This document shows positions 5,120-40,422 of a DNA stretch of 40,422 nt, in pieces (position 1 is the first letter of the stretch; every line of letters begins with the position of its first letter). This DNA comes from a virus (taxonomy: Duplodnaviria; Caudoviricetes). Below the pieces are notes generated by a model that saw only the letters and a program-made list of their open reading frames with translations, was not told the origin of the DNA and searched no databases. The stretch spans positions 1-40,422 of the IMG/VR virus record IMGVR_UViG_3300029822_000026. The stretch is one strand, 5' to 3'. A program made the translations under genes and the position numbers.

Positions 5120-5529
5120 TTGAACTTAAATGGACCGGATCCTAACTGATACAGCTCTGAATTGTATCAAAGCAAGCACAACGTTTCGAACCCATCTATA
5201 TATATATAACTGGGTTTTTGAACCGACTAATAGGTGTTTTTTGAGCGACTGACTGTTAGCTATCTTTTGAGTAATTCATTACTTTATTATTACTTATTAT
5301 TATTATATTATTATTATATATAAATATATATAAAAAAATGAGAAACAATGAATATAGAAGAATGTATAGAACAGACTAACTAACTATAATGAGATATGTG
5401 GGGATAGATGCTTTTAAGTTCAACTTGAAATCTATCAGTCGGTTCATGGATACAGTTTTATATATATATATGGGATTCAAACGTTGTGCTTGCTTTGATA
5501 CAAGTCGTACTATCAGTTCTACCAGTTCA
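5120..5529. other. Candidate replication origin: ~70-bp imperfect inverted arms around a very AT-rich core
   Basis: Perfect 25-bp inverted repeat 5162-5186/5479-5503, extended by (TA)n tracts and a 14/15 inverted repeat 5219-5233/5432-5446. Non-coding, with a nearly pure A/T core near 5270-5340. Confidence 0.6.
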
Positions 5530-10591: not shown

Positions 10592-10980
10592 TGGGATTCT
10601 GGGATAAGGTAATGGGGTATTTGGGTTTTATTGAAGATGAGGCAGCTGGGGAAATTCCGCAAAGCTATCGCGAGAAGCGCAAGTGGCGATCCGTACCTGA
10701 AGTCTCGATTGATAATGCTCTGCTTGAGTTGGCGAAAGCGATGCTTCAAGGTATGGCGCAACTTCTTGAGGAAGCCGAAAGGTACACCGAAGACAGCAAG
10801 AAGCGTCGCGATACGCTTGACGATTTTCAGATGATGGGATCTATCGTAACAGGTATCCTGGATAGCTGTAGCAACTTGCTCGACACGCCATTTGGCGACA
10901 AAAATCTTCGCGATACGTTAGGTTTAATCTCAACTCAGCAAGTCCAACTGTTAATGCGAAACCCCAACATTCAAGAGTAG
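10591..10980 (+). CDS. Hypothetical helical protein
   Basis: AAAGGAG RBS, TAATG coupling, 129 aa. Confidence 0.65.
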   Translation: MGFWDKVMGYLGFIEDEAAGEIPQSYREKRKWRSVPEVSIDNALLELAKAMLQGMAQLLEEAERYTEDSKKRRDTLDDFQMMGSIVTGILDSCSNLLDTPFGDKNLRDTLGLISTQQVQLLMRNPNIQE

Positions 10981-10991
10981 TTCTAAAAGGG

Positions 10992-11061
10992 GAGCACTGA
11001 TATTTGAACTCAAAATTTTTATATCAGTGCTCTTGATATTTTTCTATATATACTATATAAT
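10992..11061 (+). promoter_or_regulatory. Promoter of the replication/modification operon with adjacent 12-bp inverted repeat
   Basis: GAGCACTGATAT (10992-11003) / ATATCAGTGCTC (11021-11032) abuts TTGATA (11033-11038), 17-bp spacer, TATAAT (11056-11061). Confidence 0.75.
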
Positions 11062-11105
11062 AATAGTATAATCATAGTATTCTCATTGAATAAAAGGAGA
11101 TAATA

Positions 11106-11876
11106 ATGAAAGTTCTTAACCTTGGTGATACCCAAGAAGGCAGAATTTTTGCCTTGATCTACGGACCTAGCGGCACAGGCAAAACTCACTTCGTGGGTAC
11201 TTTAGGCGCTCTAGGATCGGTGCTAGTAATAGACATTGATCAGGGCGCTACTACTCTAAAAACTGCTAAAGACCTAAAACCATATCTAAAAAATATCATT
11301 GCATGCGACTTCAAGCTGTTCAAAGATTTGAATTCTGCTGCACAGCTTATTGACGCAAATGATCCAAAAAGATGGAACGCGCACTTTAATCAGGGAGTTT
11401 CCGCAACCCAGCAGCGCGAATGGGTTACGAAGCCTTTTGATTGGATTGCGTGGGATACTTGGTCTGAAATTCAGTGGTACATGCTTGAAGAATTACGCTC
11501 TAAGGACACCGAAATGCGAGGTTCTGGTCTGGATTTCAGAAAGAACATTCAAATTCAACATTGGGGAATGATGACAGATCTTAATAAATTAGCAGTTCAA
11601 AATCTGCGGTCTTGCGAAGTAAACCAGCTGTTTGTTATGCAAGAAAAAGCAGACAAAGACGAGGTCACCGGTGCACGCTATGGTGGGCCTGCAATTCACG
11701 GTAAGATGGTTAACGAAATGCCTACATTTTTTGATGTAGTGATTCATAGTGGTACAGATTTACAAGGACAATTCGTAGCTACTACAAAAGCAAAAGGCTT
11801 GTGGCCAGCAAAAACCAGACTTGGCGAAGGGAAGGAATATAAGAATCCTACCGCCAAACTCGTTTTTGGTATATAG
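11106..11876 (+). CDS. Sak4-like ssDNA-annealing ATPase (AAA_24)
   Basis: LIYGPSGTGKT Walker A, IDIDQG, WDTWSE and FDVVIH. Sits between a Cas4-like nuclease and a DUF669 gene. Confidence 0.8.
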   Translation: MKVLNLGDTQEGRIFALIYGPSGTGKTHFVGTLGALGSVLVIDIDQGATTLKTAKDLKPYLKNIIACDFKLFKDLNSAAQLIDANDPKRWNAHFNQGVSATQQREWVTKPFDWIAWDTWSEIQWYMLEELRSKDTEMRGSGLDFRKNIQIQHWGMMTDLNKLAVQNLRSCEVNQLFVMQEKADKDEVTGARYGGPAIHGKMVNEMPTFFDVVIHSGTDLQGQFVATTKAKGLWPAKTRLGEGKEYKNPTAKLVFGI

Positions 11877-11880
11877 TGGA

Positions 11881-11916
11881 GGCTGTCACGGAAAACCAGC
11901 CAGAAAGGAAAACCGT
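11881..11916 (+). promoter_or_regulatory. Candidate preQ1-I riboswitch (H-type pseudoknot overlapping the RBS of the transporter)
   Basis: P1 GGCUG/CAGCC, loop UCACGGAAAAC, A-rich tail AGAAAGGAAAA, then CCGU complementary to loop ACGG. AUG follows immediately. Confidence 0.6.
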
Positions 11917-12609
11917 ATGTCTATTCCTAATGAACTGTTGTTGATCCTTACTCTACCAGTCTACTATGGGATGGCGGTGCTAGCGTACCGATTACTAGGA
12001 CGAGCAGGCATTTATGCCTTCACCGCATTCGCAACAATCGTCGCAAACATCGAGGTGCTAGCACTTGTCGAGGCCTTCGGGCTTCAAATGACTCTCGGAA
12101 ACGTTCTTTTTGCAACTATCTTTACTTGTTCGGAGATTCTGTGTGAAATGGAAAACGAGAAAGCTGCAAAGTTAACGGTTCCAATCAGTGCAGGAGTTAC
12201 AGTATTATTTGCAATCCTTGCACAATCTTGGACATGGTACACGACTGATGCTAGTACTACTATCCTAAGCTCATTCGCCAATGCTCCTAGAGTACTGATT
12301 GCTAGTTTGCTTGTAAACGTAATTTCTCAGTATGTTCAAATTTGGGTTTATGAGAGAATTTGGACAGTACAAAAGCGTTCCTTGGCAGGATTGTGGATAA
12401 GGTCTAATGGTGCTACACTAATTGCGCAGCTTGTAAATACTATACTATTCACAGTATTTGCATTTGCGGGCATCTTCGATACAACCACGCTTTGGCAAGT
12501 GATGCTAACAAGCTACACTATCTTTATTGTTACGTCCCTATTCGATACTCCTGTTCTCTATTTCACTCGGTGGCTCGAGCGCCGCTGGCCGAAATCAAAA
12601 GCGGCTTAA
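11917..12609 (+). CDS. yhhQ: Queuosine-precursor (preQ0/preQ1) transporter, YhhQ/VUT family
   Basis: 230-aa polytopic membrane protein with ANIEV, TLGNVLFATIF..SEIL.E, PRVLIASL, LWIRSNGATLIAQLVNT..F..FAF and DTP motifs. Start moved to ATG 11917. Confidence 0.9.
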   Translation: MSIPNELLLILTLPVYYGMAVLAYRLLGRAGIYAFTAFATIVANIEVLALVEAFGLQMTLGNVLFATIFTCSEILCEMENEKAAKLTVPISAGVTVLFAILAQSWTWYTTDASTTILSSFANAPRVLIASLLVNVISQYVQIWVYERIWTVQKRSLAGLWIRSNGATLIAQLVNTILFTVFAFAGIFDTTTLWQVMLTSYTIFIVTSLFDTPVLYFTRWLERRWPKSKAA

Positions 12610-12640
12610 TCATATACCGGCTGCCTCTATGGCAGCCCCA

Positions 12641-12700
12641 TGTCAGCTAGCATCGGATGCAATGCACAATAAGTAGTAAGTTCGACTCTTACAGCTGACA
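12641..12700 (+). ncRNA. tRNA-like element lacking an anticodon arm
   Basis: 8-bp closing stem TGTCAGCT/AGCTGACA, D-like arm GCAT-cggatgca-ATGC, canonical T arm GTAAG-TTCGACT-CTTAC. Only ~10 nt lie where the anticodon and variable arms would be. Confidence 0.55.
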
Positions 12701-12793
12701 CTAGCCCAAACTGGGCGCAAAAATAAAAGTCGACGGACTCTAAGCGTAGAGGCTGACACCGGCGTAATCGGGTTTAACCTCGGAAGGATGGTA

Positions 12794-13150
12794 ATGATCA
12801 ACATTGACTTTTCTAGCGTACCCAGTCGCGAAGCACTTCCTGAAGGCATCTATTCGCTTCAGGTTGCTGCAGTTGAGGAAACTATTTCCACTACCGGCAA
12901 TCCCATGCTGAAGGTTACCTTTGATGTCCTGAATGTCGAAGGTGGCCGCAAGCTTTGGGACAACTTCGTCCTGATCGAAAGGTCACTTTGGAAACTCAAA
13001 GAGTTCTTTGATGCCATGGGAATCGACACTTCGGAAATCGTCGAAATGGACGTCCAGGAAATCGTTGGGTACGAGGTTCAAGCCAGAGTGACTCAGGAAG
13101 AGTATCAGGGGACTATCCAGAATCGCATCAAAAAGATTCTGCCTGCCTAA
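12794..13150 (+). CDS. DUF669-like single-stranded DNA-binding protein
   Basis: LPEGIY, TGNPMLKVTF, GRKLWDNF, WKLKEFFDA and EEYQG...NRIKK pattern. Confidence 0.8.
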   Translation: MINIDFSSVPSREALPEGIYSLQVAAVEETISTTGNPMLKVTFDVLNVEGGRKLWDNFVLIERSLWKLKEFFDAMGIDTSEIVEMDVQEIVGYEVQARVTQEEYQGTIQNRIKKILPA

Positions 13151-13173
13151 AAAATCAAAAGCGTCGTATGGGG

Positions 13174-13197
13174 TAAGGGGGCTTCATTGCCCCCTTA
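13174..13197 (+). other. GC-rich hairpin (attenuator/processing site; no U-tract)
   Basis: TAAGGGGGC-ttcatt-GCCCCCTTA between the SSB and primase-helicase genes. Confidence 0.5.
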
Positions 13198-13222
13198 GAT
13201 TACTGGGTGGGAGGTATGTTCC

Positions 13223-15904
13223 TTGATATATGATGATTATGTAAGATGGGATCATCAAGACGATACGCAATTATATGCATGCTGTCCGTTGCACATGGAA
13301 AAGACACCATCATTTACAGTTAATAAAGAAACAGAGCAGTGGTATTGCTTTGGTTGTGATAAGGGTGGTACCGCTAAAGAGTTCATTCAAGCATACTATG
13401 ATGTAAACTCTAAGGTAGCTAAGCATGCTATAGAATACTACGAGCGAAAAGGTTCCCTACCTTTTCCTACAGAAGATCAAATCGAATACTGGCATAATAA
13501 GCTGCTCGGCAGCTCGCGAGAGCTTGCAGCTGTAAAGGTTTTTGGCTTTACAGAGGAACAAATCAAGGCGCTTAAGCTTGGATTAGATGATTTGAGAATT
13601 ACCATACCCATAAAATCTCGAACAGGAGAGTGGGTTAACGTTAGAAAATACTTGCCACCGCATCATAGAACTACCGGTGAAAACAGCCCCAAATGCATTA
13701 ACATCAAAGGACTAGGGCAACGCAGATATTATCCATATGAAGCGTTTGATAACCCGCAAACGATTGTAATCGTTGAGGGAGAAAAAGATTGCATCGCAGC
13801 TCGTTCGCAGGGCCTGAATGCTGTTACAGGGACTGGTGGTAGTGCAATACCTTATGATGAAATCAGTTTGTTTCAAAATAAGGATGTTGCAATTATGGTT
13901 GATACTGATGCTGTAGGTCTTAAATCCGTAAAAACATATACGCAATTGCTAAAAAGCGTTGCGCAATCACTACAAATAATTACACTACCCGATAAGGATT
14001 TTGTAGATTACTTTGAACGAACAGGTAATGCAGATATCTGGCAATATGCTGTTAAGTACGAGGAGTATGCTGAGGAAATTGCGCAAGGTGAAGCTCAAGA
14101 CGTTAGCTTACTCAAAAGCGAATTCACCGAAAATCTTAACGTATGGGTAAAGCTAAGATCGATGAGCGTTATCGGCGTAGAGCCAAGAATCTATACAATA
14201 CCTCAAAAGCTTAAAGTGAGTTGCAACAATCCAAAATGTACTCGACCGTGTCCTGTAGCCTGTAACTCGAGTAAAAATAGACTAGTAATGGATGTTGAGC
14301 CAAGACAAATGCTACAGTTTATAGATGCATCAGACTCCAGTATGGATTCATACGTCCGAAAAATTTTTGGATGTCGTTCTGTAAGTGCTGAAGGAGCAGA
14401 TTTTATTAACATACAGAAATTGATTTTTCAGGAAAGCGCATCGTTCATTGATGGACTGGATGAAGCGACATTCGAAAACAGATTTGGAATTTACATGTAC
14501 ACAGACTACCGTCTATCAGCAACCTTAAAGTATGACTTTGAAGCATGTAGAGTTACAGACCCACGAACACAACAAAACTACTACGTAATTCGGAATGCTG
14601 AAAATGTTACGGTATCAAACATACGACTGCAAGAGATGAACCTGTCTCGCTTTCAGCGGGTTGCGGAGGAGAAAACTAGCGCAGCGCAACTTTTAGAACA
14701 CTACTATGATGAATGGCTCCCGGTGCTAGGTATTGAGGGGCGTGTAGATTTGTTCGGTGCGATCTTGCTTTCATACTGTTCGGTAACTGAAATACCGTGG
14801 CGAGGTGGCCTGCTAAAAGGCTGGCTTGACTCGATGGTGATCGGCGACACGAGAACAGGTAAGTCGCAGATGGCGCAACGATTTATCAAAACGCTAGGCA
14901 TGGGTTCATACATAAATGGAGAAAACGCTAGACGAACTGGAGTCATTGGAGGTGTGCAACGTTTTGGAGATTCGTGGGTAGTAACTTGGGGCGCAATTCC
15001 GATGAATGATCGAGGGCTTCTGATCATCGATGAAGCGTCAGGCTTAGAGGTGGATGACATTAAAGATCTATCGTCTACTAGAAGTAGTGGAGCGGTTACA
15101 CTAAACAAAATTGTGCGAGGTGAAGCTCGAGCGCGCACAAGATTGATTTGGTTATCTAATCCTCGCAGTGGTCGAAATCTATCTGAGTTTTACTGGAAAG
15201 GTTTCGGTGCATTTCAAGAATTTATTCCCATTATGGAGGATCAGGCCCGATTCGATTTAGTAGTTACTGCTGCGCAAGAAGACCTGGAAATACCGCTAGG
15301 AATAGACTCGAACCGCAAACCAAGAATCTCTGATTGGACTGCGTTGATAAGCCTAGCTTGGTCTCTCGAGGCAGATTCAATTATTATTCAACCGGAGTTA
15401 CGCAATCAGCTTCGAGCAATAATCAGCCAGCTGACAGCAGACCTCGGTGGGAGCTCGCTAGTAGTAGGAGTTGCGGTTCACGAGAAGCTATTGCGGCTTG
15501 CATGCGCATTTGCAGTTCTAAGCGGTGCATTTGATGCGGCTGGTAAACTAGTTGTAACCTTACGACACTTGGAGTACGCAGATGAGTTTTTGCGGTCGAG
15601 TTTGAATAAGCCGTCGTTTGGTTATGGAGACTACATTCGGGAATTCAAGCGCGCTCAGATTAAACGATCCGAGAACTTAACGTTTATTCGAACCTTAGTT
15701 GTCGCAAATCCCGCAATCAAAGCGTTACTAACAGCTAATTCCTTCAAGGGTTTTCAGTTCCAGGAGATCATGGGAATCGATAGATCGGATAGCGCAAAGA
15801 TGATATCAGAACTAATTACTCGAGGACTACTACGCACGGGCGCAAATGCTTCATACATACCAGATAAGTTATTGATGGAATTAGCAAAGCAGATGGAGGT
15901 ATAA
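13223..15904 (+). CDS. DnaG-type primase (CHC2 Zn finger + TOPRIM) fused to MCM-family helicase
   Basis: Primase motifs CPLH..EKTPSF..WYCFGC, IVEGEKD and DTD. Helicase motifs GDTRTGKSQ, IIDEA, SNP and ARFDL arginine finger. C-terminal winged-helix-like domain. Confidence 0.88.
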   Translation: MIYDDYVRWDHQDDTQLYACCPLHMEKTPSFTVNKETEQWYCFGCDKGGTAKEFIQAYYDVNSKVAKHAIEYYERKGSLPFPTEDQIEYWHNKLLGSSRELAAVKVFGFTEEQIKALKLGLDDLRITIPIKSRTGEWVNVRKYLPPHHRTTGENSPKCINIKGLGQRRYYPYEAFDNPQTIVIVEGEKDCIAARSQGLNAVTGTGGSAIPYDEISLFQNKDVAIMVDTDAVGLKSVKTYTQLLKSVAQSLQIITLPDKDFVDYFERTGNADIWQYAVKYEEYAEEIAQGEAQDVSLLKSEFTENLNVWVKLRSMSVIGVEPRIYTIPQKLKVSCNNPKCTRPCPVACNSSKNRLVMDVEPRQMLQFIDASDSSMDSYVRKIFGCRSVSAEGADFINIQKLIFQESASFIDGLDEATFENRFGIYMYTDYRLSATLKYDFEACRVTDPRTQQNYYVIRNAENVTVSNIRLQEMNLSRFQRVAEEKTSAAQLLEHYYDEWLPVLGIEGRVDLFGAILLSYCSVTEIPWRGGLLKGWLDSMVIGDTRTGKSQMAQRFIKTLGMGSYINGENARRTGVIGGVQRFGDSWVVTWGAIPMNDRGLLIIDEASGLEVDDIKDLSSTRSSGAVTLNKIVRGEARARTRLIWLSNPRSGRNLSEFYWKGFGAFQEFIPIMEDQARFDLVVTAAQEDLEIPLGIDSNRKPRISDWTALISLAWSLEADSIIIQPELRNQLRAIISQLTADLGGSSLVVGVAVHEKLLRLACAFAVLSGAFDAAGKLVVTLRHLEYADEFLRSSLNKPSFGYGDYIREFKRAQIKRSENLTFIRTLVVANPAIKALLTANSFKGFQFQEIMGIDRSDSAKMISELITRGLLRTGANASYIPDKLLMELAKQMEV

Positions 15905-15906
15905 AA

Positions 15907-16227
15907 ATGGATAGACAATTAGTAGAAAAGTATCTAGACAAGTATCCAAAGTTTGAGCATTTCATAGGTGCTGGAACTATCAGCCTTAGAATGTCGAGAG
16001 AGATTTTGGATATCGACAGGTATTTAATGTATGATATTTTTAAGGAATTAGTAGTTGCAGGAGCTGTCACTGCAGTGGGTGGTAGTGCCTGGAGAGCTAC
16101 TAAGGAACTTAAATTACTATTAACAGATAGGAGGAACAAAACGCGTGGATTTAGATCTGATGCAAGCGGACATAAAAGCGCAGATAGCGCAAAGTCCAGT
16201 CCTAGCTCGACTGTCCAAAAACAGTAA
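15907..16227 (+). CDS. Stand-alone winged-helix-like protein
   Basis: GGAGGT RBS. Resembles the C-terminus of the upstream helicase. Confidence 0.6.
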   Translation: MDRQLVEKYLDKYPKFEHFIGAGTISLRMSREILDIDRYLMYDIFKELVVAGAVTAVGGSAWRATKELKLLLTDRRNKTRGFRSDASGHKSADSAKSSPSSTVQKQ

Positions 16228-16459
16228 ACTGCAACATGCGGTCTCAGGCTTGACGGAAGAGACTGGAGAGGTTGCGGGATTGTTAAAGCGCCAATGCTAT
16301 AAGCATCAAGAGATACCTCTCGAGCGTTGGGTCGATGAGCTTGGAGATGTGCTGTGGTATTGGTTAGCGACATGTGACGCACTTAATATCAATCCTAGTT
16401 CTGTATTCACTCACAATAGACTTAAATTGGAGGAGCGTTATGGACCATTTAGAACGTGA
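16145..16459 (+). CDS. MazG-like nucleotide pyrophosphohydrolase
   Basis: GLTEETGEV...DELGDVLWY...N..KL..RY. AGGAGG RBS and GTG start. Confidence 0.88.
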   Translation: MDLDLMQADIKAQIAQSPVLARLSKNSKLQHAVSGLTEETGEVAGLLKRQCYKHQEIPLERWVDELGDVLWYWLATCDALNINPSSVFTHNRLKLEERYGPFRT

Positions 16460-16853
16460 TTCGAAAAATGTTGTAGCATACGAAGGCGGCTCTTTGCGCG
16501 AACGCGTCCCTGGTAGAGGTGTGTATTCATGCATGCCGGCATGCAGCTTACGACGCCTAGCTCAGCAGTATGAGTATGGTAAGCTAAAGTACGGTCGCAA
16601 TGGCGAAGCATATACGGATGGCCTTCCAGTGAAAGACTGCATCGACAGCATGTTCAGGCATTTGGTAGCATACCTCGATGGTGATAACACAGAAGATCAT
16701 ATGGCTGCTATTGCATGGGGTAGTTTCGCAGTAATGTTTATGGAGGAGCACAAACCGCAATTCCAGGATGTCGTAGGTCGTAAGCGACTAAGCGCAAAGA
16801 GAGGCGATTTCAATTACATCCAGAAGAGATTAAAGGATGGTAAGCTAATATGA
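16440..16853 (+). CDS. dATP/dGTP diphosphohydrolase-domain protein (DUF5664)
   Basis: YG..KYG.N, DS.FRHL, EDH.AAIAW. Start moved to ATG 16440 after GGAGGAG. Confidence 0.82.
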   Translation: MDHLERDSKNVVAYEGGSLRERVPGRGVYSCMPACSLRRLAQQYEYGKLKYGRNGEAYTDGLPVKDCIDSMFRHLVAYLDGDNTEDHMAAIAWGSFAVMFMEEHKPQFQDVVGRKRLSAKRGDFNYIQKRLKDGKLI

Positions 16854-17614
16854 TTAAAAGATTTCACGAAGCTCCAAAAAGCATCTTCAAAGACGTGCAG
16901 CTACTAACTGATGGAGATTATGCATTAGTGCATCTATTTGAGACTGACCCGGAATACTTCGACATGTTCAAAAAAGCAGTCGCGATGGGTCGTGAAGTAA
17001 TTCTCGATAACTCGATTTTCGAGCTCGGTGAGGCGTTCGAGTCAACTCGATTCGTTGATTGGGTACTGAAGTTGTTACCTACATGGTATATTGTTCCTGA
17101 CTGCTTAGACAATATGGAACAAACGATTTACAATATGGTGGATTTTGTTCTCAATTACGGGACCTTACCTAGTAAGCGAATCGGCGTGGTCCAGGGTAAG
17201 ACCGAACAAGAGTTACGTGAATGTTATCGTGCGCTGCATCCGTACTGTGACATGATTGCATTTAGCTTCAACTCGATTCCATTTGGAGAAACTGTGCAGC
17301 AGCAAGCCTTGGAACGTCCGAGATTCATATTCAGAATGGCAGCTGATGGCATCTTAGATCCTCATATGCCACATCACCTGTTGGGTTGCGCATTACCTCA
17401 AGAGATGCTTTCGTACAGACATCCATGCATCTATTCTATGGATACCAGTAATCCAGTGGTGCATGGATTGAAGGGTATTTCGTATAATCAGTATGGACTG
17501 GATCGAAAAGAAAGCGAGAAGCTTTGCGATCTGATTGATGCAGTACCAACACACCTAGAATGGCAAATTATCAGATATAACATAAGCGCCTTTAGGAGGT
17601 TCTGTAATGAGTAG
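16850..17614 (+). CDS. dpdA: TGT-fold 7-deazaguanine transglycosylase (DpdA-like, probably DpdA3 type)
   Basis: TGT-like motif series ILDNS.FE, VPD, GVVQG, HHLLG and SMDTS, supported by context (yhhQ, formyltransferase, dNTPases). Confidence 0.75.
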   Translation: MIKRFHEAPKSIFKDVQLLTDGDYALVHLFETDPEYFDMFKKAVAMGREVILDNSIFELGEAFESTRFVDWVLKLLPTWYIVPDCLDNMEQTIYNMVDFVLNYGTLPSKRIGVVQGKTEQELRECYRALHPYCDMIAFSFNSIPFGETVQQQALERPRFIFRMAADGILDPHMPHHLLGCALPQEMLSYRHPCIYSMDTSNPVVHGLKGISYNQYGLDRKESEKLCDLIDAVPTHLEWQIIRYNISAFRRFCNE

Positions 17615-18131
17615 ATGGATTGCGCTGTACTCACAGACTGGCGATGAATTGCGGAAATTGCAAAAGCTATTAAACGGAAGAGCGCCAGATATGGTACTGA
17701 CTACCAATCCAAAAAAATATGTAGATTGCACACGAACTGCGCGAGAGTTACACTATCAAGTTGAGGCAGTACTGTTGGAGCAACTGCGGCCTGGTGATAT
17801 TGTTACTCTGCATGGATATCTGTTCATACTAAGCGATAAGGTGTTATCTATTCCTGGCGTAAAGTTTTACAACGGCCATCCAGGACTAGTAACTCTGTAT
17901 CCTGAATTAAAAGGTAAAGATCCACAGCAAAAGATATTCAATAGTTTCTATCCAGTTGTTGGATGCATTATACATGAAGTTACCAGTGAAGTTGACTCCG
18001 GTCCTATTTTAATGACCTCTCAAATTACTGTAGATTTCGGATTTTATACGCGTTCGTTTGATCAAGTAATTAACGACATCAAATACATTTCACTCGGATT
18101 GTGGCGAGTATTTCTGGAAGGAGTATTATAA
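17607..18131 (+). CDS. PurN-like N10-formyl-THF formyltransferase (DpdN-like)
   Basis: TLHGYLFIL, NGHPG, ELKGKDP and IHEVTSEVDSGPIL carry the formyltransferase N/H/D catalytic residues. Overlaps the dpdA stop. Confidence 0.82.
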   Translation: MSRWIALYSQTGDELRKLQKLLNGRAPDMVLTTNPKKYVDCTRTARELHYQVEAVLLEQLRPGDIVTLHGYLFILSDKVLSIPGVKFYNGHPGLVTLYPELKGKDPQQKIFNSFYPVVGCIIHEVTSEVDSGPILMTSQITVDFGFYTRSFDQVINDIKYISLGLWRVFLEGVL

Positions 18132-20359
18132 TGCTTGAGAGATTAGTAAAGGCTGCAGCGCCTAATATGCCTAGAGACAGGCGAGTCGAATCCAGGCGAG
18201 ATCCTGCCATCTGGTATCAGATAGGTGGTATTATACCTACACTATTCGTTCCGCCCGAACACATCTTGCGCATGAACGTGATTGAATTAGACAGCTTTAT
18301 CGAAGCAGTCAATGCTTTTGCTAAAGCTGATCTGAGCGCTCCTAAGTACATTTGGGACAAATCAAAGCTCACTCTTGAAAATTACTCCGGGGAGGCTGCC
18401 GCAGTTGCGCTTCACGATCTCCGCAATCTCTTGCTGAAACGCGATCCAGAAGATCGCATAATTGCATGCGATATTGAAACGAGGCGAATTGAATGGGAAG
18501 ATAACTATCTGTTGGCTATTGGGTTTGCATATGAAGACAATGCTTGCTTAGCTATTCATAGATTGCAAAATAATAAAATGCAAATGGATGAGCAAGTTCG
18601 TGAAGCGGTACAAGAATTCTTATTAGAACCAAGCTTTACATTTATTTGGCATAACGGTAAGTTCGACTGTGGTCGTCTTAAATATTTATGCAATATCGAT
18701 GCTAGAGTTGATGAAGATACGATGCTACAACATTATGCTCAAATCAATGAGCGTAGAGGTACTCATAGCTTAAAGCAGCTTGGACCTCTTTACCTACAGG
18801 CTCCTCATTGGGAAGAAGAGTTAGAGGCGTTAAAAAAGAGTTGGTGTAAAGCTCATAAGCTCAAACTTGAAGAGTTTATGTATGATTATGTTCCGCTCTC
18901 TCAATTGGTACCATACATGCAGATGGATTGCATTGCAACTCGAAGATTATGGTCGCTATTTAAGCAATTAGCTCGACCGGATTCAGAATTTATTTATCGC
19001 AAGCTAATTGAAGCTTCAAATGTGTATAAGCAAGTTGAGTTAAACGGTCAGCGACTCGATTTTGATTATATGGAAGATCTAGAATACGAGTTGGATTGTA
19101 ATATTCAAGCAGCTACAAAAAAGCTGAATGAGGTATCTGCTAAGGTTTGGAATCCTAGACTGTATCAACAAATGACAGGTGCACGAACGGTACCTAACGA
19201 ATTTAATCCTAAATCTCCAAAGCAGCTTAAATGGATGCTAGAAGAGGTTCTGGGACATAGTATACCATCAACAGATCAAAATCAGATGGCATACTTACTT
19301 GAACAGATGGAAGCAGGACGCATTACTAATCCTCTGGCAAAAGAATTCTTAGAAAGCATCGGCGAACTGCGTAAGTACACAAAGTATATGGATACCTTTG
19401 TTCAAGGCATGCGAGAGGTGGTATGTCGAGATCACCGTATTCGTTGCGTATTTAATTTGCATGGAACCGAAACCGGTAGGCTATCATCGTCTTCTCCCAA
19501 CATGCAAAACATTCCTCGCAATAAGACCATTAGAAATTTACTAGTTGCAACACCTGGATATAAATTACTACAATTGGATTATAGCCAAGCTGAATTGCGA
19601 GTACTTGCGATGTTATCAGACGATGATCACTTAATTCAGATATACACTGATGGTAAAGATTTGCATGATGCGATAGCGGAAAGCATGTTCGGACCAAACT
19701 TTGATAAAGAACAGAGAAATCTAGCTAAGACAATCAATTTTGGGATTGCATATGGTCGAGGTCCGAGTTCAATTTCTGAAAAATTTGGCAAGTCAATTGC
19801 GGAATCTAAAGAGATAATCGCAAAGTGGTTCGCGCCAATGCCTAAGGTTAAGTTCTATTTAGATGAGAGACGTCGAATGGCGTTGAAGGGAGAACCCTGT
19901 ACAACGCCGCTGGGTCGTTCTCGACATTTTGTGATTACATCCGAGGATATGAATCACATTCAAAACGAATATATAAACACACCAATCCAGTCACTTGCAT
20001 CTGACTTTACTATGCTCTCACTTTTAGAGATAGCAAAGTATCTTGATCAACTTGAGCCAGGCACTGCTCGTATTACCACTAATGTACATGATTCAATTAT
20101 GTTAGAGGTACGTGATGGCGATGAGGAGTTGTTAAAAGGTATTGCTCGAAAGTGTGTAGAAGTAATGAAAGAAACTCCCCAGCAGTTAATGGCAGGATTT
20201 ATAAAACCATTTTATACCACGCTTACGCTTCCCGGTGCACGGGAGCAAGCGAGACAAAAATGGCTAGAAAATCCTCAAGTAATCGGATGCAGAGTACCAT
20301 TCAAAGCTGACGTTGAAGTTGGATACAAGTGGGGAGAATTAGAAAAACTAGCGCTATGA
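18131..20359 (+). CDS. polA: Family A DNA polymerase with 3'-5' exonuclease
   Basis: Exo motifs DIET, HNGKFD and YMQMD. Polymerase motifs TGRLSS..PNMQNIP, DYSQAELR (A), R..AKTINFGIAYG (B) and VHDS (C). Start at ATG 18131. Confidence 0.96.
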   Translation: MLERLVKAAAPNMPRDRRVESRRDPAIWYQIGGIIPTLFVPPEHILRMNVIELDSFIEAVNAFAKADLSAPKYIWDKSKLTLENYSGEAAAVALHDLRNLLLKRDPEDRIIACDIETRRIEWEDNYLLAIGFAYEDNACLAIHRLQNNKMQMDEQVREAVQEFLLEPSFTFIWHNGKFDCGRLKYLCNIDARVDEDTMLQHYAQINERRGTHSLKQLGPLYLQAPHWEEELEALKKSWCKAHKLKLEEFMYDYVPLSQLVPYMQMDCIATRRLWSLFKQLARPDSEFIYRKLIEASNVYKQVELNGQRLDFDYMEDLEYELDCNIQAATKKLNEVSAKVWNPRLYQQMTGARTVPNEFNPKSPKQLKWMLEEVLGHSIPSTDQNQMAYLLEQMEAGRITNPLAKEFLESIGELRKYTKYMDTFVQGMREVVCRDHRIRCVFNLHGTETGRLSSSSPNMQNIPRNKTIRNLLVATPGYKLLQLDYSQAELRVLAMLSDDDHLIQIYTDGKDLHDAIAESMFGPNFDKEQRNLAKTINFGIAYGRGPSSISEKFGKSIAESKEIIAKWFAPMPKVKFYLDERRRMALKGEPCTTPLGRSRHFVITSEDMNHIQNEYINTPIQSLASDFTMLSLLEIAKYLDQLEPGTARITTNVHDSIMLEVRDGDEELLKGIARKCVEVMKETPQQLMAGFIKPFYTTLTLPGAREQARQKWLENPQVIGCRVPFKADVEVGYKWGELEKLAL

Positions 20360-22383: not shown

Positions 22384-22391
22384 CAGAACAG

Positions 22392-22423
22392 ATACCTCAG
22401 CTAGTCTGAGGTATTTTTTTTTT
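22392..22423 (+). terminator. Intrinsic terminator ending the replication operon
   Basis: ATACCTCAG-ctagt-CTGAGGTAT followed by a long T run. Confidence 0.9.
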
Positions 22424-22680: not shown

Positions 22681-22992
22681 GCCGCCAGTACCCACACCAG
22701 CGACGACACCACCACCAAAACAGGAGGGAAAGAACAATGAAATCGGCAATGAACGAATTGTGGGCAAACCTATATTTACAGAATCATGCAGAGATTAACG
22801 GCAGAAAAGTTTTTCACTATCTTATTCAAACGGCAATTGGAAACATTAGCATTGTTGAGTATGAAGAGCCATCAAAGCAACTCAAGCGTTTTATGTACGG
22901 GGAAGATTACGAAGCCGCCGAGCGAAAATTCAAAGCCTGCTGTAAGTGGGTGATGATGGGGAAATAAGCCGCCAGTACCCACACCAGCGACG
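22681..22992 (+). repeat. 25-bp direct repeat pair GCCGCCAGTACCCACACCAGCGACG (22681-22705; 22968-22992)
   Basis: Identical copies, each just after a stop codon. Confidence 0.9.
22737..22967 (+). CDS. Small hypothetical protein flanked by direct repeats
   Basis: CAGGAGGG RBS, 76 aa. Confidence 0.7.
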   Translation: MKSAMNELWANLYLQNHAEINGRKVFHYLIQTAIGNISIVEYEEPSKQLKRFMYGEDYEAAERKFKACCKWVMMGK

Positions 22993-23860: not shown

Positions 23861-25675
23861 CTACGCCCTCCTTAAATATTTATCGGAGCACCACCCCCGG
23901 ACGATTGGAGCTTGATTATGCAGTACTGTATCTACCCATCCATTGTTAGAGTCTAGTACGATACATTCTTCACCCGCAGATAGTTTTCCAATAGATACGA
24001 AAGAGGTTCCAGGACCTTCGCGTACATTAGTGTAGCTTGCACCTGCATATTTGTAAATTGCAGGAAGATAAGTTTCCGGCTCAGGCTCGGGCTCCGCTGG
24101 AGGAATAGGTTCCGCAATTAAGCCGCGCAATGAGTCCCAGATATATTCGTCTACGATACCATTGATCGTAACGCCTATACTCATCTGATAAGCACGCAAA
24201 GCCATATCAGTATTTGGACCAAATGAGCCATCAATTTTTCCAGGACTAAAACCTTTTTCCAGAAGTAATCCTTGAAGTTCTTTGACATCATCTCCCCGCA
24301 TTAGCGGATCAGCGAGATGCAAAACTCGCTGGCTAGGTTGCGGAATCTCTACCTCCCCAAGAAGAGCCGCCCGGAAATAATTCATGTCTATACTGGGGCA
24401 AAGTGTGGGGTAAAGCTTCCCAGTCGGCTTACCATTCGAGTATAAGGGGACCTCATTGTGGCCGAGTACATTCTTAGGCTGCAAATTGTACATTGCCATC
24501 AGGTCCTTTGTAAGACGAATCGCTGCCTGGAATTGCTTGGTGGTAGGGAGATCGCTGTTACGCATATCTCCATCTAATGCGATCGAGATGCTCCTTTGAT
24601 TTGCATTGTTAGTTGTACTGTCCTTCACAGCACCATGGCTATAGTTATATCCGCGTCCAAGATAGATTGTACCATCTTGGAGCACGAGATACGAATATCC
24701 GACGCCCTTATGTCCATCTTTTTCAATCTTGCTTTTTTGCAACGCTGCCCACTTTGCAGGAGTACCGTAGTTACCCACAGTGTGATGTATTTGAATATGA
24801 TCGGTTGTTTTACGAATATTACCTTTTCCTTTAGGCCAAACAAGACCCGTATCTATAGCGTAAGCTACCTCTTTCATGGATAAACTCTCCTTTGGTTTGA
24901 TTTGTAAGAAACCCCATCCAGTATGTGGATCAAAGCCTACTGGAGTTAAATCCTGTGCAAAACTTTTTAACTTAGTAAATAAGTCTGGTTCAGATAATTG
25001 CAAATTTTGAGATAGTACAAGTGCCGCTTTTCCTGCTACATTAGGTTGTGCCGCAGACGTGCCATCGTATAGAGCGGGTTTTCCATCCAAACCTATCACA
25101 TCTACATCACGCCCTAAATCCGCAAAGTCCATTTCGTTATGCCAAGTAGAAAAATCAGCCGTTGTACCATCACGATTTAAAGCTGCAACACAGATAGGTT
25201 CAGGCCAGCATCCAGGATAACGATTCAAGCGTTCCTCGCCATCATTGCCAGCAGCTACTATGACAGGTACGTTTAGAGCAACAAGTTCTTTGATAAGAGA
25301 ATGAGTTTCTTCGATACCAGCACACAGATATGACATACTAACAATGTATCTATTTGCAGTATCGATTTTTACTCTACGTGTTATGTCTGCAAGTATCCAG
25401 TTTATCATAGGTCCTTGAACGCTTAAATCTTGCGTATATCCATTATACACTAAAATTTTGGCCTCCGGACACCACCAGTTAAGCACCGAAGCTGTTTTAG
25501 TTCCATGAGAATCGATAGGCATTAGAGCATTAAAATGCCCAGAGATTAGCTGTGAACCAAAGGGCACCAGCGTGGACACGCCCGTGTCAATAGACGCAAT
25601 AATTATATTTTGTCCTTTGATACCTTGTGTATGGAAGGAGTCTTTGATCTGTTGATTAGTTATTTTAATATCCAT
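23861..25675 (-). CDS. Endolysin: S8 subtilase + amidase_2 + PG-binding + SH3b
   Basis: S8 motifs IDTG, HGT, AAGNDG and GTS. Amidase motifs IHHT, GY.Y, SI.IAL.G, GHNE and CP. PG-binding GDDVKELQ..L...GF..G.IDG.FG..T. SH3b NVREGPGT. Confidence 0.88.
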   Translation of the reverse strand: MDIKITNQQIKDSFHTQGIKGQNIIIASIDTGVSTLVPFGSQLISGHFNALMPIDSHGTKTASVLNWWCPEAKILVYNGYTQDLSVQGPMINWILADITRRVKIDTANRYIVSMSYLCAGIEETHSLIKELVALNVPVIVAAGNDGEERLNRYPGCWPEPICVAALNRDGTTADFSTWHNEMDFADLGRDVDVIGLDGKPALYDGTSAAQPNVAGKAALVLSQNLQLSEPDLFTKLKSFAQDLTPVGFDPHTGWGFLQIKPKESLSMKEVAYAIDTGLVWPKGKGNIRKTTDHIQIHHTVGNYGTPAKWAALQKSKIEKDGHKGVGYSYLVLQDGTIYLGRGYNYSHGAVKDSTTNNANQRSISIALDGDMRNSDLPTTKQFQAAIRLTKDLMAMYNLQPKNVLGHNEVPLYSNGKPTGKLYPTLCPSIDMNYFRAALLGEVEIPQPSQRVLHLADPLMRGDDVKELQGLLLEKGFSPGKIDGSFGPNTDMALRAYQMSIGVTINGIVDEYIWDSLRGLIAEPIPPAEPEPEPETYLPAIYKYAGASYTNVREGPGTSFVSIGKLSAGEECIVLDSNNGWVDTVLHNQAPIVRGWCSDKYLRRA

Positions 25676-39306: not shown

Positions 39307-39325
39307 TTTTCCTATCTCCCTGCTA

Positions 39326-39384
39326 AGTTTTTTTAAGTGGTTACTGCCACTCGCAGTGCCTATTTGTAAGTCTTAGGCTTGACT
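39326..39384 (-). promoter_or_regulatory. Structured leader of the scaffold gene (tandem hairpin/pseudoknots)
   Basis: Minus strand: AGUC-aagccuaa-GACU-uacaaa-UAGGC, then AGUGG-caguaa-CCACU-uaaaaaaa-cu. Confidence 0.45.
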
Positions 39385-39387
39385 AAA

Positions 39388-40422
39388 CTAAGCAATGTTT
39401 TCACGCGCACGCTGTCTAACCATGCCAGTACGTTTTATCAGCTCACGCATCTCGCGACTCTTCTCCGCAATCTTCTCGCGAGCTTTGCGCAATTCTGTCT
39501 CTTTACCTTCAGCTTCAGCAACCACTTCTCGTCTCTTTTGTTTGCGTAATTCACGTTCAATAGCACGCTGCTGCTGAGACTCATTGTATCGACGTTCGTT
39601 CTCTCGCAGGTCGTATGGGTGATAACGCTGTTCGCTAATCCCAGGCCAAAATGGATACATCACATGCCTGCAATTATAACCACACAATCCCTCTCCAGTG
39701 CCATATCCAGTAGCTTCAGCAAGATTTTGATACTTACTATCTCGACCATGAACCCTATAAATCTTGCCCTGCCATTCTGCATGTTCTGGACGCGCTCCCC
39801 AATGGGACGATACCTCCATCAGTTCCGCGCCCCACTCATCCGCACGCGCCATTTGTAACTTTCCAGCGCTTTCTGCACTAGTAGTAAGTATCATTTGACG
39901 AACAGCTACTTCAGGAGTCCGTCGAATTATCTTACCAGCAGCTGTTGCATACGTGATTCCTGTGATACCTTGATCTGCCAGTTCACGTGTAGCTTTCCAC
40001 ACACTGTCTTCGTATGAGTAAATCCCTACACTTGTCTCAAGATACACCTGGTTCACAATCTTCAAGAACTCAGTGTTTGCACTTTCCAGTGCTGTGGTAT
40101 TAACCAAATTCAAAACGCTTTTTGCGTTATCGACGGTAGCTTGCAGTATTTGCTGAATGACCGGCGAAGCTGTTAGCGGCATAGCTTGGTAAATAGTCAA
40201 TCCAGCGCGTTGCGCATCTAGGTAAATACTCTCAGCCAAATCAAGCGATCGGTAACCAGCTTCACGCATAATGCGCTCAACATCCTTCAAAGCCTTACCA
40301 GACATCTTAGCTATCAAAGCTAGATTCTCACGACGCAGACCACCGACCTCTTGAAGCTTACTTGCAAACCAGTCGAAATCGTCCGTTACAGTTGGCAAGC
40401 CTTGTTGAAACTTAATTGCTAT
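39388..40422 (-). CDS. Minor capsid protein, 3' part (second allele; true start lies at 803 via the circular junction)
   Basis: VSSHWGARPEHAEWQG, GLCGYNCRH and QR..ER..R..KR motifs. Open to the window end. Confidence 0.9.
   Translation of the reverse strand: MAIKFQQGLPTVTDDFDWFASKLQEVGGLRRENLALIAKMSGKALKDVERIMREAGYRSLDLAESIYLDAQRAGLTIYQAMPLTASPVIQQILQATVDNAKSVLNLVNTTALESANTEFLKIVNQVYLETSVGIYSYEDSVWKATRELADQGITGITYATAAGKIIRRTPEVAVRQMILTTSAESAGKLQMARADEWGAELMEVSSHWGARPEHAEWQGKIYRVHGRDSKYQNLAEATGYGTGEGLCGYNCRHVMYPFWPGISEQRYHPYDLRENERRYNESQQQRAIERELRKQKRREVVAEAEGKETELRKAREKIAEKSREMRELIKRTGMVRQRARENIA
39704..40422. repeat. Imperfect terminal overlap, copy 2
   Basis: Matches 1..719 at ~95% identity without gaps. 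Confidence 0.97.

Follow-up and report, generated by a model that had tools for sequence, protein, structure and literature searches.

A conserved, predicted salvage-fed variant of the DpdA3–DpdN guanine modification system in a family of small phages

We analysed a 40,422-base stretch of viral DNA (Caudoviricetes; IMG/VR record IMGVR_UViG_3300029822_000026; hereafter, the window) that encodes on one strand a transporter of the YhhQ/QPTR (queuosine precursor transporter) family behind a predicted preQ1-I riboswitch, a guanine transglycosylase of the DpdA3 group, a DpdN-type formyltransferase and a family A DNA polymerase (PolA). There is good indirect support that these genes represent a real and conserved variant of DNA guanine modification that is fed by salvage and whose chemistry is predicted. 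Extensive substitution of guanine by a salvaged 7-deazaguanine is highly probable, and the replacing base is likely to be the formylated form of 7-aminomethyl-7-deazaguanine (preQ1). In the mechanism that we favour, preQ1, or queuine that is cleaved to preQ1 by a host lyase, would be imported via the phage YhhQ/QPTR, and a build-up of preQ1 would shut off translation of the transporter through the riboswitch. DpdA3 would swap the base on free dG nucleotides, DpdN would formylate it to formyl-preQ1, and PolA would copy the modified nucleotide into DNA, with most guanines replaced. To this chain as a whole, from import and transporter feedback to exchange on free nucleotides, formylation and incorporation, we assign a probability of roughly 0.45. 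The described phages with DpdA3 and DpdN all make their own preQ1, and an imported precursor poses a supply problem.

DpdA3 and DpdN are orthologous to proteins of a phage with complete guanine replacement

The initial annotation described the transglycosylase gene as TGT/DpdA-like (TGT, tRNA-guanine transglycosylase), and homology, a tree and a predicted fold agree with this. By these measures, its product is an orthologue of DpdA3 from Flavobacterium phage immuto_2-6A (130/262 identical residues, 50%) with a TGT-type barrel. It is 38–39% identical to DpdA3 of Campylobacter phages (38% to CP220), and a quickly built 42-row tree puts it within a 33-row clade that holds both immuto and CP220; 3,830 homologues were found in all. 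A tblastn search with the protein returned 27 phage records, among which 9g, CAjan, CDKM15 and phiLM21 are absent; the enzyme is not of the DpdA1 or DpdA2 type. Pfam and NCBIfam gave no match for this gene, and sequence profiles gave no link between DpdA3 and TGT. The structure model (mean predicted local distance difference test score of 94.6) matched TGT in Foldseek (E = 2e-10, query TM-score 0.72), and its top matches among 48,161 chains were arcTGT (Z = 18.3, root-mean-square deviation 3.0, 234 aligned residues), the DNA insertase DpdA (7ui4; Z = 17.7) and bacterial TGT (Z = 16.7). Residues D53, D84 and D198 are unchanged in all 42 rows; they may correspond to TGT Asp102, Asp156 and Asp280, while hhalign to five TGTs produced no alignment.

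The PurN-like formyltransferase noted initially is, from its sequence, orthologous to DpdN of immuto (YP_010114479; 69/187 identical residues, 37%). Four immuto records were its only matches among 50,697 phage records, and the core stretch NGHPG..YPELKGKDPQ is identical between the two proteins. The gene is co-encoded with dpdA3, its frame is intact, and it is translationally coupled to both dpdA3 and polA. The earlier statement that formylated preQ1 had been reported in a Flavobacterium phage with DpdA3 and a PurN-like DpdN proved correct: complete replacement of guanine by formylated deoxy-preQ1 (fdPreQ1) was measured in immuto_2-6A (Cui et al. 2023, PMC10516641).

Import stands in for synthesis across relatives

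As had been noted initially, no folE, queC, queD, queE or queF gene was detected in the genome. Profiles for QueD, QueE, FolE and QueF, built from 66–111 phage homologues, gave nothing better than E = 0.03 on the 1,165 six-frame segments of the window; PF06508 (QueC) had no match in the window at E ≤ 1, and Pfam found no que family in 44 further window open reading frames (ORFs). The gene order of the window recurs in 14 of 186 DpdA3 loci, and in the fetched stretches que genes were found in none of these 14, compared with 139 of the 172 other DpdA3 loci.

A primase-based search, independent of DpdA3, returned 49 loci, of which 42 long matches were tabulated and seven short-match rows excluded. 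The 36 loci with a primase identity of at least 36% were taken as the family; they form 20 clusters at 90% and include many near-identical strains. The profiles behind the locus table were partly built from these same loci, and Pfam confirmed the families. QPTR is present in 31 family loci, three carry QueD, QueE and FolE without QPTR, and two are short fragments; DpdA3 is visible in 30. Among the distant loci L261–L266, none of QPTR, que genes, DpdA3 or DpdN was found. DpdN occurs in 17 family loci (six clusters), all of which carry QPTR and no que gene. In 16 of the 17, an SDR (short-chain dehydrogenase/reductase) gene lies behind the transporter gene; the other, L245, has QPTR and DpdN without SDR. 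QueF, QueC and QueD were found in none of five whole relative records, and QueF was not found in five more either. Within a single primase cluster, L248 carries QueC and QPTR, and L249 carries QueC, QueD, QueE and FolE. Because import and synthesis modules alternate across the family, import stands in for synthesis.

In the L248/L249 pair, QPTR (L248:10936-12371) is swapped for QueD-QueE-FolE (L249:10936-13315), and the loop of the QPTR leader ends in AAG, not AC; judged from its sequence, this leader is possibly a riboswitch with a changed ligand, 7-carboxy- or 7-amido-7-deazaguanine (CDG or ADG). Three relatives encode an unassigned ORF of ∼107 aa beside QueC and QPTR (L240:7828-8163, L241:11722-12042 and L258:9357-9683). 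Its CP..DY pattern is reminiscent of QueF-like T-folds, and Pfam gave no que family match. In L255, a DpdA3 phage without DpdN, a weakly PTPS/QueD-like ORF (10680-11156, E = 6e-4), possibly DpdL-like, precedes QPTR.

The transporter and its leader

The window YhhQ passed TIGR00697, the YhhQ/QPTR (COG1738) family model, with 113.5 bits (cut-off 50.95) and matched PF02592, and its nearest named proteins are mostly from Clostridia. It is likely a queuosine-precursor importer, and the imported molecule would be preQ1 or, alternatively, queuine. In one related contig, of low depth, the 17 yhhQ differences listed are synonymous without exception. We discarded an alternative, longer start for yhhQ at 11821 because the gene would then overlap its AAA neighbour and because the protein collection contains the 230-aa form. 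A search for viral contigs that match the window YhhQ or its leader pattern found none.

In the predicted leader element, P1 (11881–11885/11897–11901) comprises 5 bp and is closed by a G-C pair, and the 11-nt loop begins with U and ends with AC. P2 (11888–11891/11913–11916) comprises 4 bp and stops a single base short of the yhhQ start codon, and the A-rich L3 (11902–11912) contains a Shine-Dalgarno-like AAAGGA. Type II preQ1-I riboswitches are marked by L3 adenines, U6, a closing G-C pair and an AC that precedes the P1 3′ strand (PMC11625349), and each of these features is present in the window sequence. The elements of T. tengcongensis and B. subtilis share with it the G-C-closed P1, the U that comes next and the AC before the P1 3′ strand, as well as the A-rich L3, the H-type pseudoknot and the position upstream of a precursor transporter (PMC11625349). 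The window element differs from them in being phage-borne, in having the ribosome-binding site in L3 and P2 one base before the start codon, and in lying below Rfam detection.

Similar elements lie upstream of the transporter in relatives. Over eight elements, G8, T9, A18, C19 and C20 are unchanged, P1 is paired in all eight with double changes at four of its five pairs (eight related sequences), and P2 is 72% paired, with two compensated pairs between the window and L059 and L246. A model from seven relatives, with the window excluded, recovered the element of the window (E = 3.3e-5); its second-best match had E = 0.99 (rough E-values). Model R1 missed the leaders of 34 other loci, which are more divergent. 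A hand-written pseudoknot descriptor matched the window only at 11881 (0.5–1.2 matches per shuffle); it was written after the element had been seen and carries little weight. Several observations count against the element: Rfam scans gave no preQ1 match at the leader, where the RF00522 gathering score was not reached; its stability does not exceed that of shuffles (z = 0.18); and the commonest elements of relatives have only two P2 pairs (four relatives) and lack the last L3 adenine. The preQ1-I-like leaders of 20 bacterial loci likewise gave no Rfam match. On balance, we consider it quite likely from sequence comparison that the leader functions as a preQ1 riboswitch. The candidate riboswitch of the initial annotation thus gains a pseudoknot that covaries among relatives, despite the silence of Rfam. 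Its proposed role in tuning the whole system was not sustained: L3 holds the ribosome-binding site and the element sits within the operon, directly before yhhQ, so that it would control translation of yhhQ only.

Two other RNA candidates were seen. The sole RF00522 match in the window (E = 4.3e-4, under the cut-off; 39318-39356) lies inside a GP20-b RNA motif (Rfam RF03003, over the gathering score; 39324-39384, minus strand) upstream of the scaffold gene and was set aside. Relatives whose DpdA3 is divergent carry preQ1-I-like pseudoknots with 7-nt loops upstream of queC or QPTR (L240:7089-7136, L241:10952-10999 and L244:10972-11019).

Restriction-site pattern

TTTAAA occurs once in the window (16.0 expected, p = 2e-6) and ATTAAT not at all (7.1 expected, p = 8e-4). 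No other of the 2,080 hexamer classes is as depleted as these two sequences, the DraI and AseI sites, and p < 0.01 was reached by not one of the 56 G/C-containing palindromes. With synonymous-codon shuffling over 30,942 coding bases, the lowest three of 64 palindromes were ATTAAT, TTTAAA and TTATAA, the last being the PsiI site (PMC6884629). Because a protected guanine needs no avoidance of G-containing sites, avoidance of TTTAAA and ATTAAT with G/C sites spared argues that guanine is modified. The observed/expected ratio of G/C-containing palindromes was 0.88–0.98 in eight DpdA3 carriers, compared with 0.52–0.69 in eight controls without a DpdA3 match. Against this stand the relatedness of the carriers and the make-up of the controls, seven of which have a higher GC content, four are partial stretches and some are temperate; moreover, ATTAAT and TTTAAA are avoided neither in the immuto stretch examined nor in G309. 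The pattern gives indirect support, at the level of sequence statistics, for modified DNA guanine.

These data bear on the idea that the transporter and riboswitch are host-derived and boost tRNA queuosine, with DpdA3 and DpdN acting on tRNA or using host-made preQ1 only. YhhQ was not linked to any phage group by Hutinet et al. 2019 (PMC6884629), and yhhQ lies 3.5 kb from dpdA3, as such an origin might have it. However, transporter and synthesis modules replace each other over the 34 informative family loci, no tRNA gene was found in the window, the restriction-site pattern points to DNA, and few genomes in a sample of the host class (see below) make preQ1. We regard this alternative as very unlikely.

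Exchange on free nucleotides or on finished DNA

Whether DpdA3 acts before or after replication is a point on which the favoured mechanism departs from published work. All DpdA proteins were proposed by Cui et al. to act post-replication, with a DNA-binding face modelled on DpdN, whose function is only predicted there; both points weigh against exchange on free nucleotides (PMC10516641). In favour of such exchange, the same article found the ADG nucleoside in infected cytoplasm, and DpdA3 was not testable in the E. coli plasmid model (PMC10516641). Alternatively, the same salvage-fed formyl-preQ1 could be placed by DpdA3 exchange and DpdN formylation on finished DNA, in which case the MazG-like and PF18909 proteins would be unrelated pool cleaners, dGTP would not be purged, and modification would scale gracefully with supply. 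In addition to the published model, the structural match of DpdA3 to the DNA insertase DpdA 7ui4 favours this, no recognisable kinase was found in the window, and a scarce precursor would be tolerated.

The gene content of the family argues the other way. The MazG-like and DUF5664 hydrolase genes reported initially were both confirmed by Pfam (PF03819 and PF18909). Among the 30 family loci that show DpdA3, MazG is present in 29 and DUF3310 or PF18909 in all 30. PF18909 alternates with DUF3310 in the same slot; no homology between them was found, so the alternation is not one of orthologues. DUF3310 has been linked to nucleotide kinase activity (PMC10700055), and a kinase-like gene is present in 115 of the 172 other DpdA3 loci. 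This constant linkage, which also includes PolA, together with the compact and acidic DpdA3 (net charge −10; pI 5.4, compared with 6.4–6.8 in five bacterial TGTs, a weak difference), favours exchange at the nucleotide level, and complete replacement should be easier at the level of the pool. We therefore lean towards nucleotide-level exchange, with the MazG-like and PF18909 proteins shaping the dGTP/dGMP pool, and consider action on finished DNA rather unlikely. dGTP hydrolysis by these two proteins is a prediction from domains, from which specificity cannot be read. The earlier statement that the phage purges dGTP and polymerises the analogue would hold only with exchange on free nucleotides, contrary to the published post-replication model.

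Precursor supply and queuine salvage

The window capsid is nearest to those of Clostridioides, Faecalibacterium and Acutalibacter phages, and we infer a clostridial host from this kinship and from the Clostridia homologues of YhhQ. A class sample of genomes was taken around G007, a Lachnospiraceae metagenome-assembled genome. QueF and QueC are rare in it (25/300 and 34/301 genomes) but QueA is nearly universal (295/300), and the host would therefore most often be a salvager. The window type of QPTR occurs in nine of 300 genomes of this sample, and in six of the nine loci it lies behind a radical-SAM gene, which gave a weak RaSEA match in the four cases scanned and would encode a QueL-like queuine lyase. 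Three of eight bacteria with this QPTR type lack the lyase-like gene, QueC and QueF (genomes may be incomplete).

The SDR of the relatives occurs in 20 of 300 genomes. One of the 20 is a phage-like contig; among the remaining 19, the gene lies behind QPTR in 18 and is fused to it in one, and preQ1-I-like leaders were read by pattern or eye at 10 of these 19 loci. QueC, QueF and a QueL-like gene were not found in the 19 genomes. We dropped the idea that SDR and the QueL-like gene exclude each other (0/19), which is not significant against a background of 24/300, and the presence of QueA in all 19 was set aside as uninformative against 295/300. On chemical grounds, an SDR could convert queuine to preQ1 by oxidation and elimination. 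The QPTR+SDR pair (L053:3880-5291, L197-L215 and L095:6359-7853, with the fusion in L213) is present in two unrelated types of DpdA3 phage as well as in Clostridia, frequently below preQ1-I-like leaders, and is a candidate for a non-QueL route from queuine to preQ1. The window carries neither a QueL-like gene nor SDR and therefore needs outside preQ1 or a host lyase.

This bears on the nature of the replacing base. Guanine could be replaced only partly or by another base, namely unformylated preQ1, 7-cyano-7-deazaguanine (preQ0) or queuine (possibly N-formylated), supplied through a QPTR that transports queuine. QPTR substrates vary between species (PMC11130926). The window type of QPTR lies behind the lyase-like gene in most bacterial loci, the window lacks both that gene and the SDR that 16 of the 17 DpdN relatives carry, and of the 23 residues that Fig. 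S14 of Cui et al. gives as conserved in the four true DpdN, only 15 are identical in its formyltransferase, with four further conservative (other homologues, 15–22). The residue count also weighs against the favoured chain. On the other side, DpdN is intact and coupled to its neighbours, a nitrile such as that of preQ0 cannot be N-formylated, the three bacteria with this QPTR type and no lyase-like gene, QueC or QueF fit direct uptake of preQ1, and L245 likewise combines QPTR and DpdN without SDR. A base other than formyl-preQ1, or partial replacement, thus appears improbable.

Another objection to the favoured chain is quantitative. Replacement would require ∼17,500 guanines per genome (GC 0.44), corresponding to ∼1.4 mM at an assumed burst of 50 in 1 fL. 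Such a demand is hard to meet by scavenging and makes a dGTP purge risky; given this demand, dGTP purging is the weakest link.

Genome organization and other features

The ends of the record overlap by 719 bp (94.9% identity, within the minor capsid gene), giving a unit genome of ∼39.7 kb. Because of this overlap, we consider the genome effectively complete, as assumed in the initial annotation, despite its linear class in IMG/VR and a CheckV completeness of 94%. The 37 mismatches between 1-719 and 39704-40422 suggest that the population was mixed or that the minor capsid gene of the assembly is recombined. The sequencing data set that matches best is a fermentation metagenome, which may be the source of the window; no RNA data set containing it was listed.

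On the plus strand, the order is AAA_24, leader, yhhQ, DUF669, primase-helicase, a 106-aa ORF, MazG, PF18909, DpdA3, DpdN, PolA, SNF2 and a resolvase-like gene (Table 1). The last five genes of the putative modification module, from MazG to PolA, overlap by 20, 4, 8 and 1 nt in turn, and the 3,535 bp between yhhQ and MazG are filled by DUF669, the primase-helicase and the 106-aa ORF. The single plus-strand operon proposed initially therefore stands as regards strand and the overlapping genes, with the distance of yhhQ from MazG as a reservation; one transcript from the promoter-like to the terminator-like site is plausible from the sequence.

Table 1. Features of the modification and replication region (window coordinates)
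Feature	Position	Strand	Basis or remark
Promoter-like site	11033..11061	+	11/12 consensus bases, ahead of replication operon; consensus match only
Predicted preQ1-I type II riboswitch	11881..11916	+	comparison with relatives
YhhQ/QPTR queuosine-precursor transporter	11917..12609	+	PF02592, TIGR00697
DUF669 single-stranded DNA-binding (SSB)-like protein	12788..13150	+	replication gene between yhhQ and modification genes
Primase-helicase	13223..15904	+	CHC2 zinc finger, Toprim, MCM-type P-loop
106-aa ORF	15907..16227	+	no Pfam/PHROG match; position kept across phage family
MazG-like nucleotide pyrophosphohydrolase (predicted)	16145..16459	+	PF03819, E = 4.7e-7
PF18909 protein (dATP/dGTP diphosphohydrolase N-terminal, DUF5664)	16440..16853	+	Pfam
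DpdA3 guanine transglycosylase (254 aa) with compact TGT barrel	16850..17614	+	homology, predicted fold
DpdN-type formyltransferase, PurN superfamily	17607..18131	+	PF00551
Family A DNA polymerase (PolA) with 3′-5′ exonuclease domain	18131..20359	+	Pfam
Terminator-like hairpin after SNF2 helicase and resolvase-like genes	22390..22416	+	consensus match only

Behind yhhQ lies a stable structure (12619-12700; 12610-12700 gave z = −4.5) and behind the SSB gene a hairpin rich in GC (13175-13197). Near the corresponding places, relatives carry tRNA-Gln/Leu genes. Elsewhere, the minus strand encodes an endolysin (23861-25675) in which an N-terminal subtilase (S8) domain is fused to amidase, peptidoglycan-binding and SH3 domains. 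Non-coding repeats comprise an inverted repeat of ∼75 bp (86%; 5159-5233 and 5432-5506) and an exact 25-bp direct repeat (22681-22705 and 22968-22992).

Relation to described systems and implications

The closest described system is that of immuto, which shares with the window orthologous DpdA3 and DpdN and a nearby family A polymerase. FolE, QueD, QueE, QueC, QueF, a thymidylate-kinase-like gene and a 160-kb genome are found only in immuto, whereas QPTR with a predicted riboswitch, MazG, PF18909 and the much smaller genome are found only in the window. By analogy, the window system would work like the fdPreQ1 system of immuto without being a member of it as defined, given the absence of phage-encoded FolE and QueC/D/E/F. 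All four 'true DpdN' phages carry the full pathway, and among the 91 phages that Cui et al. tabulate in data set S1, every row with DpdA3 and DpdN has FolE to QueF, and the YhhQ column is without entry (PMC10516641). Campylobacter phage CP220 and Cellulophaga phage phiST also belong to the DpdA3 family and are reported to have complete guanine replacement, by 2′-deoxy-7-amido-7-deazaguanosine (dADG) and 2′-deoxy-7-deazaguanosine (dDG), respectively, but unlike the window they encode FolE, QueD and QueE (with QueC or DpdL) and no DpdN (PMC10516641).

The initial annotation regarded a biosynthesis-free, regulated configuration as undescribed, which was true in part. Clostridium phage CDKM15 and Sinorhizobium phage phiLM21 are listed with DpdA and YhhQ and no synthesis genes, and uptake of an outside precursor was suggested in the same article (Hutinet et al. 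2019, PMC6884629). Like the window, they combine a transglycosylase and YhhQ without que genes; unlike it, they are listed under DpdA and not DpdA3, in a table with no formyltransferase column, and the word riboswitch does not occur in the main text of that article (PMC6884629). What is new is the form with DpdA3, DpdN and a predicted riboswitch. We found no literature on a synthesis-free phage with DpdA3 and DpdN, on a phage preQ1 riboswitch or on the QPTR-SDR pair in a search that covered few subscription papers.

In its widest form, the proposal would be that a widespread family of small lytic phages of anaerobic Clostridia replaces all guanines, at the nucleotide level, by formyl-preQ1 made only from scavenged queuosine precursors, whose supply is sensed by a phage riboswitch, mostly with an undescribed NAD-dependent SDR that releases preQ1 from queuine in place of the radical-SAM enzyme QueL. 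We hold this to be unlikely as a whole; if true, restriction resistance would track a micronutrient of the community or the diet, and infected hosts would lose queuosine supply. Two questions left by Cui et al., the role of DpdN as the formyltransferase and the substrate of DpdA3 (DNA or nucleotides), could be addressed with the four-gene core, so far the smallest such kit. The family also offers natural swaps of import and synthesis, as in L248 and L249, predicted phage preQ1 riboswitches missed by Rfam, a sequence-only signature of guanine modification and, in the SDR, a new candidate for an enzyme of bacterial queuine salvage. In the window phage, defence against restriction would hinge on a scavenged, shared micronutrient.

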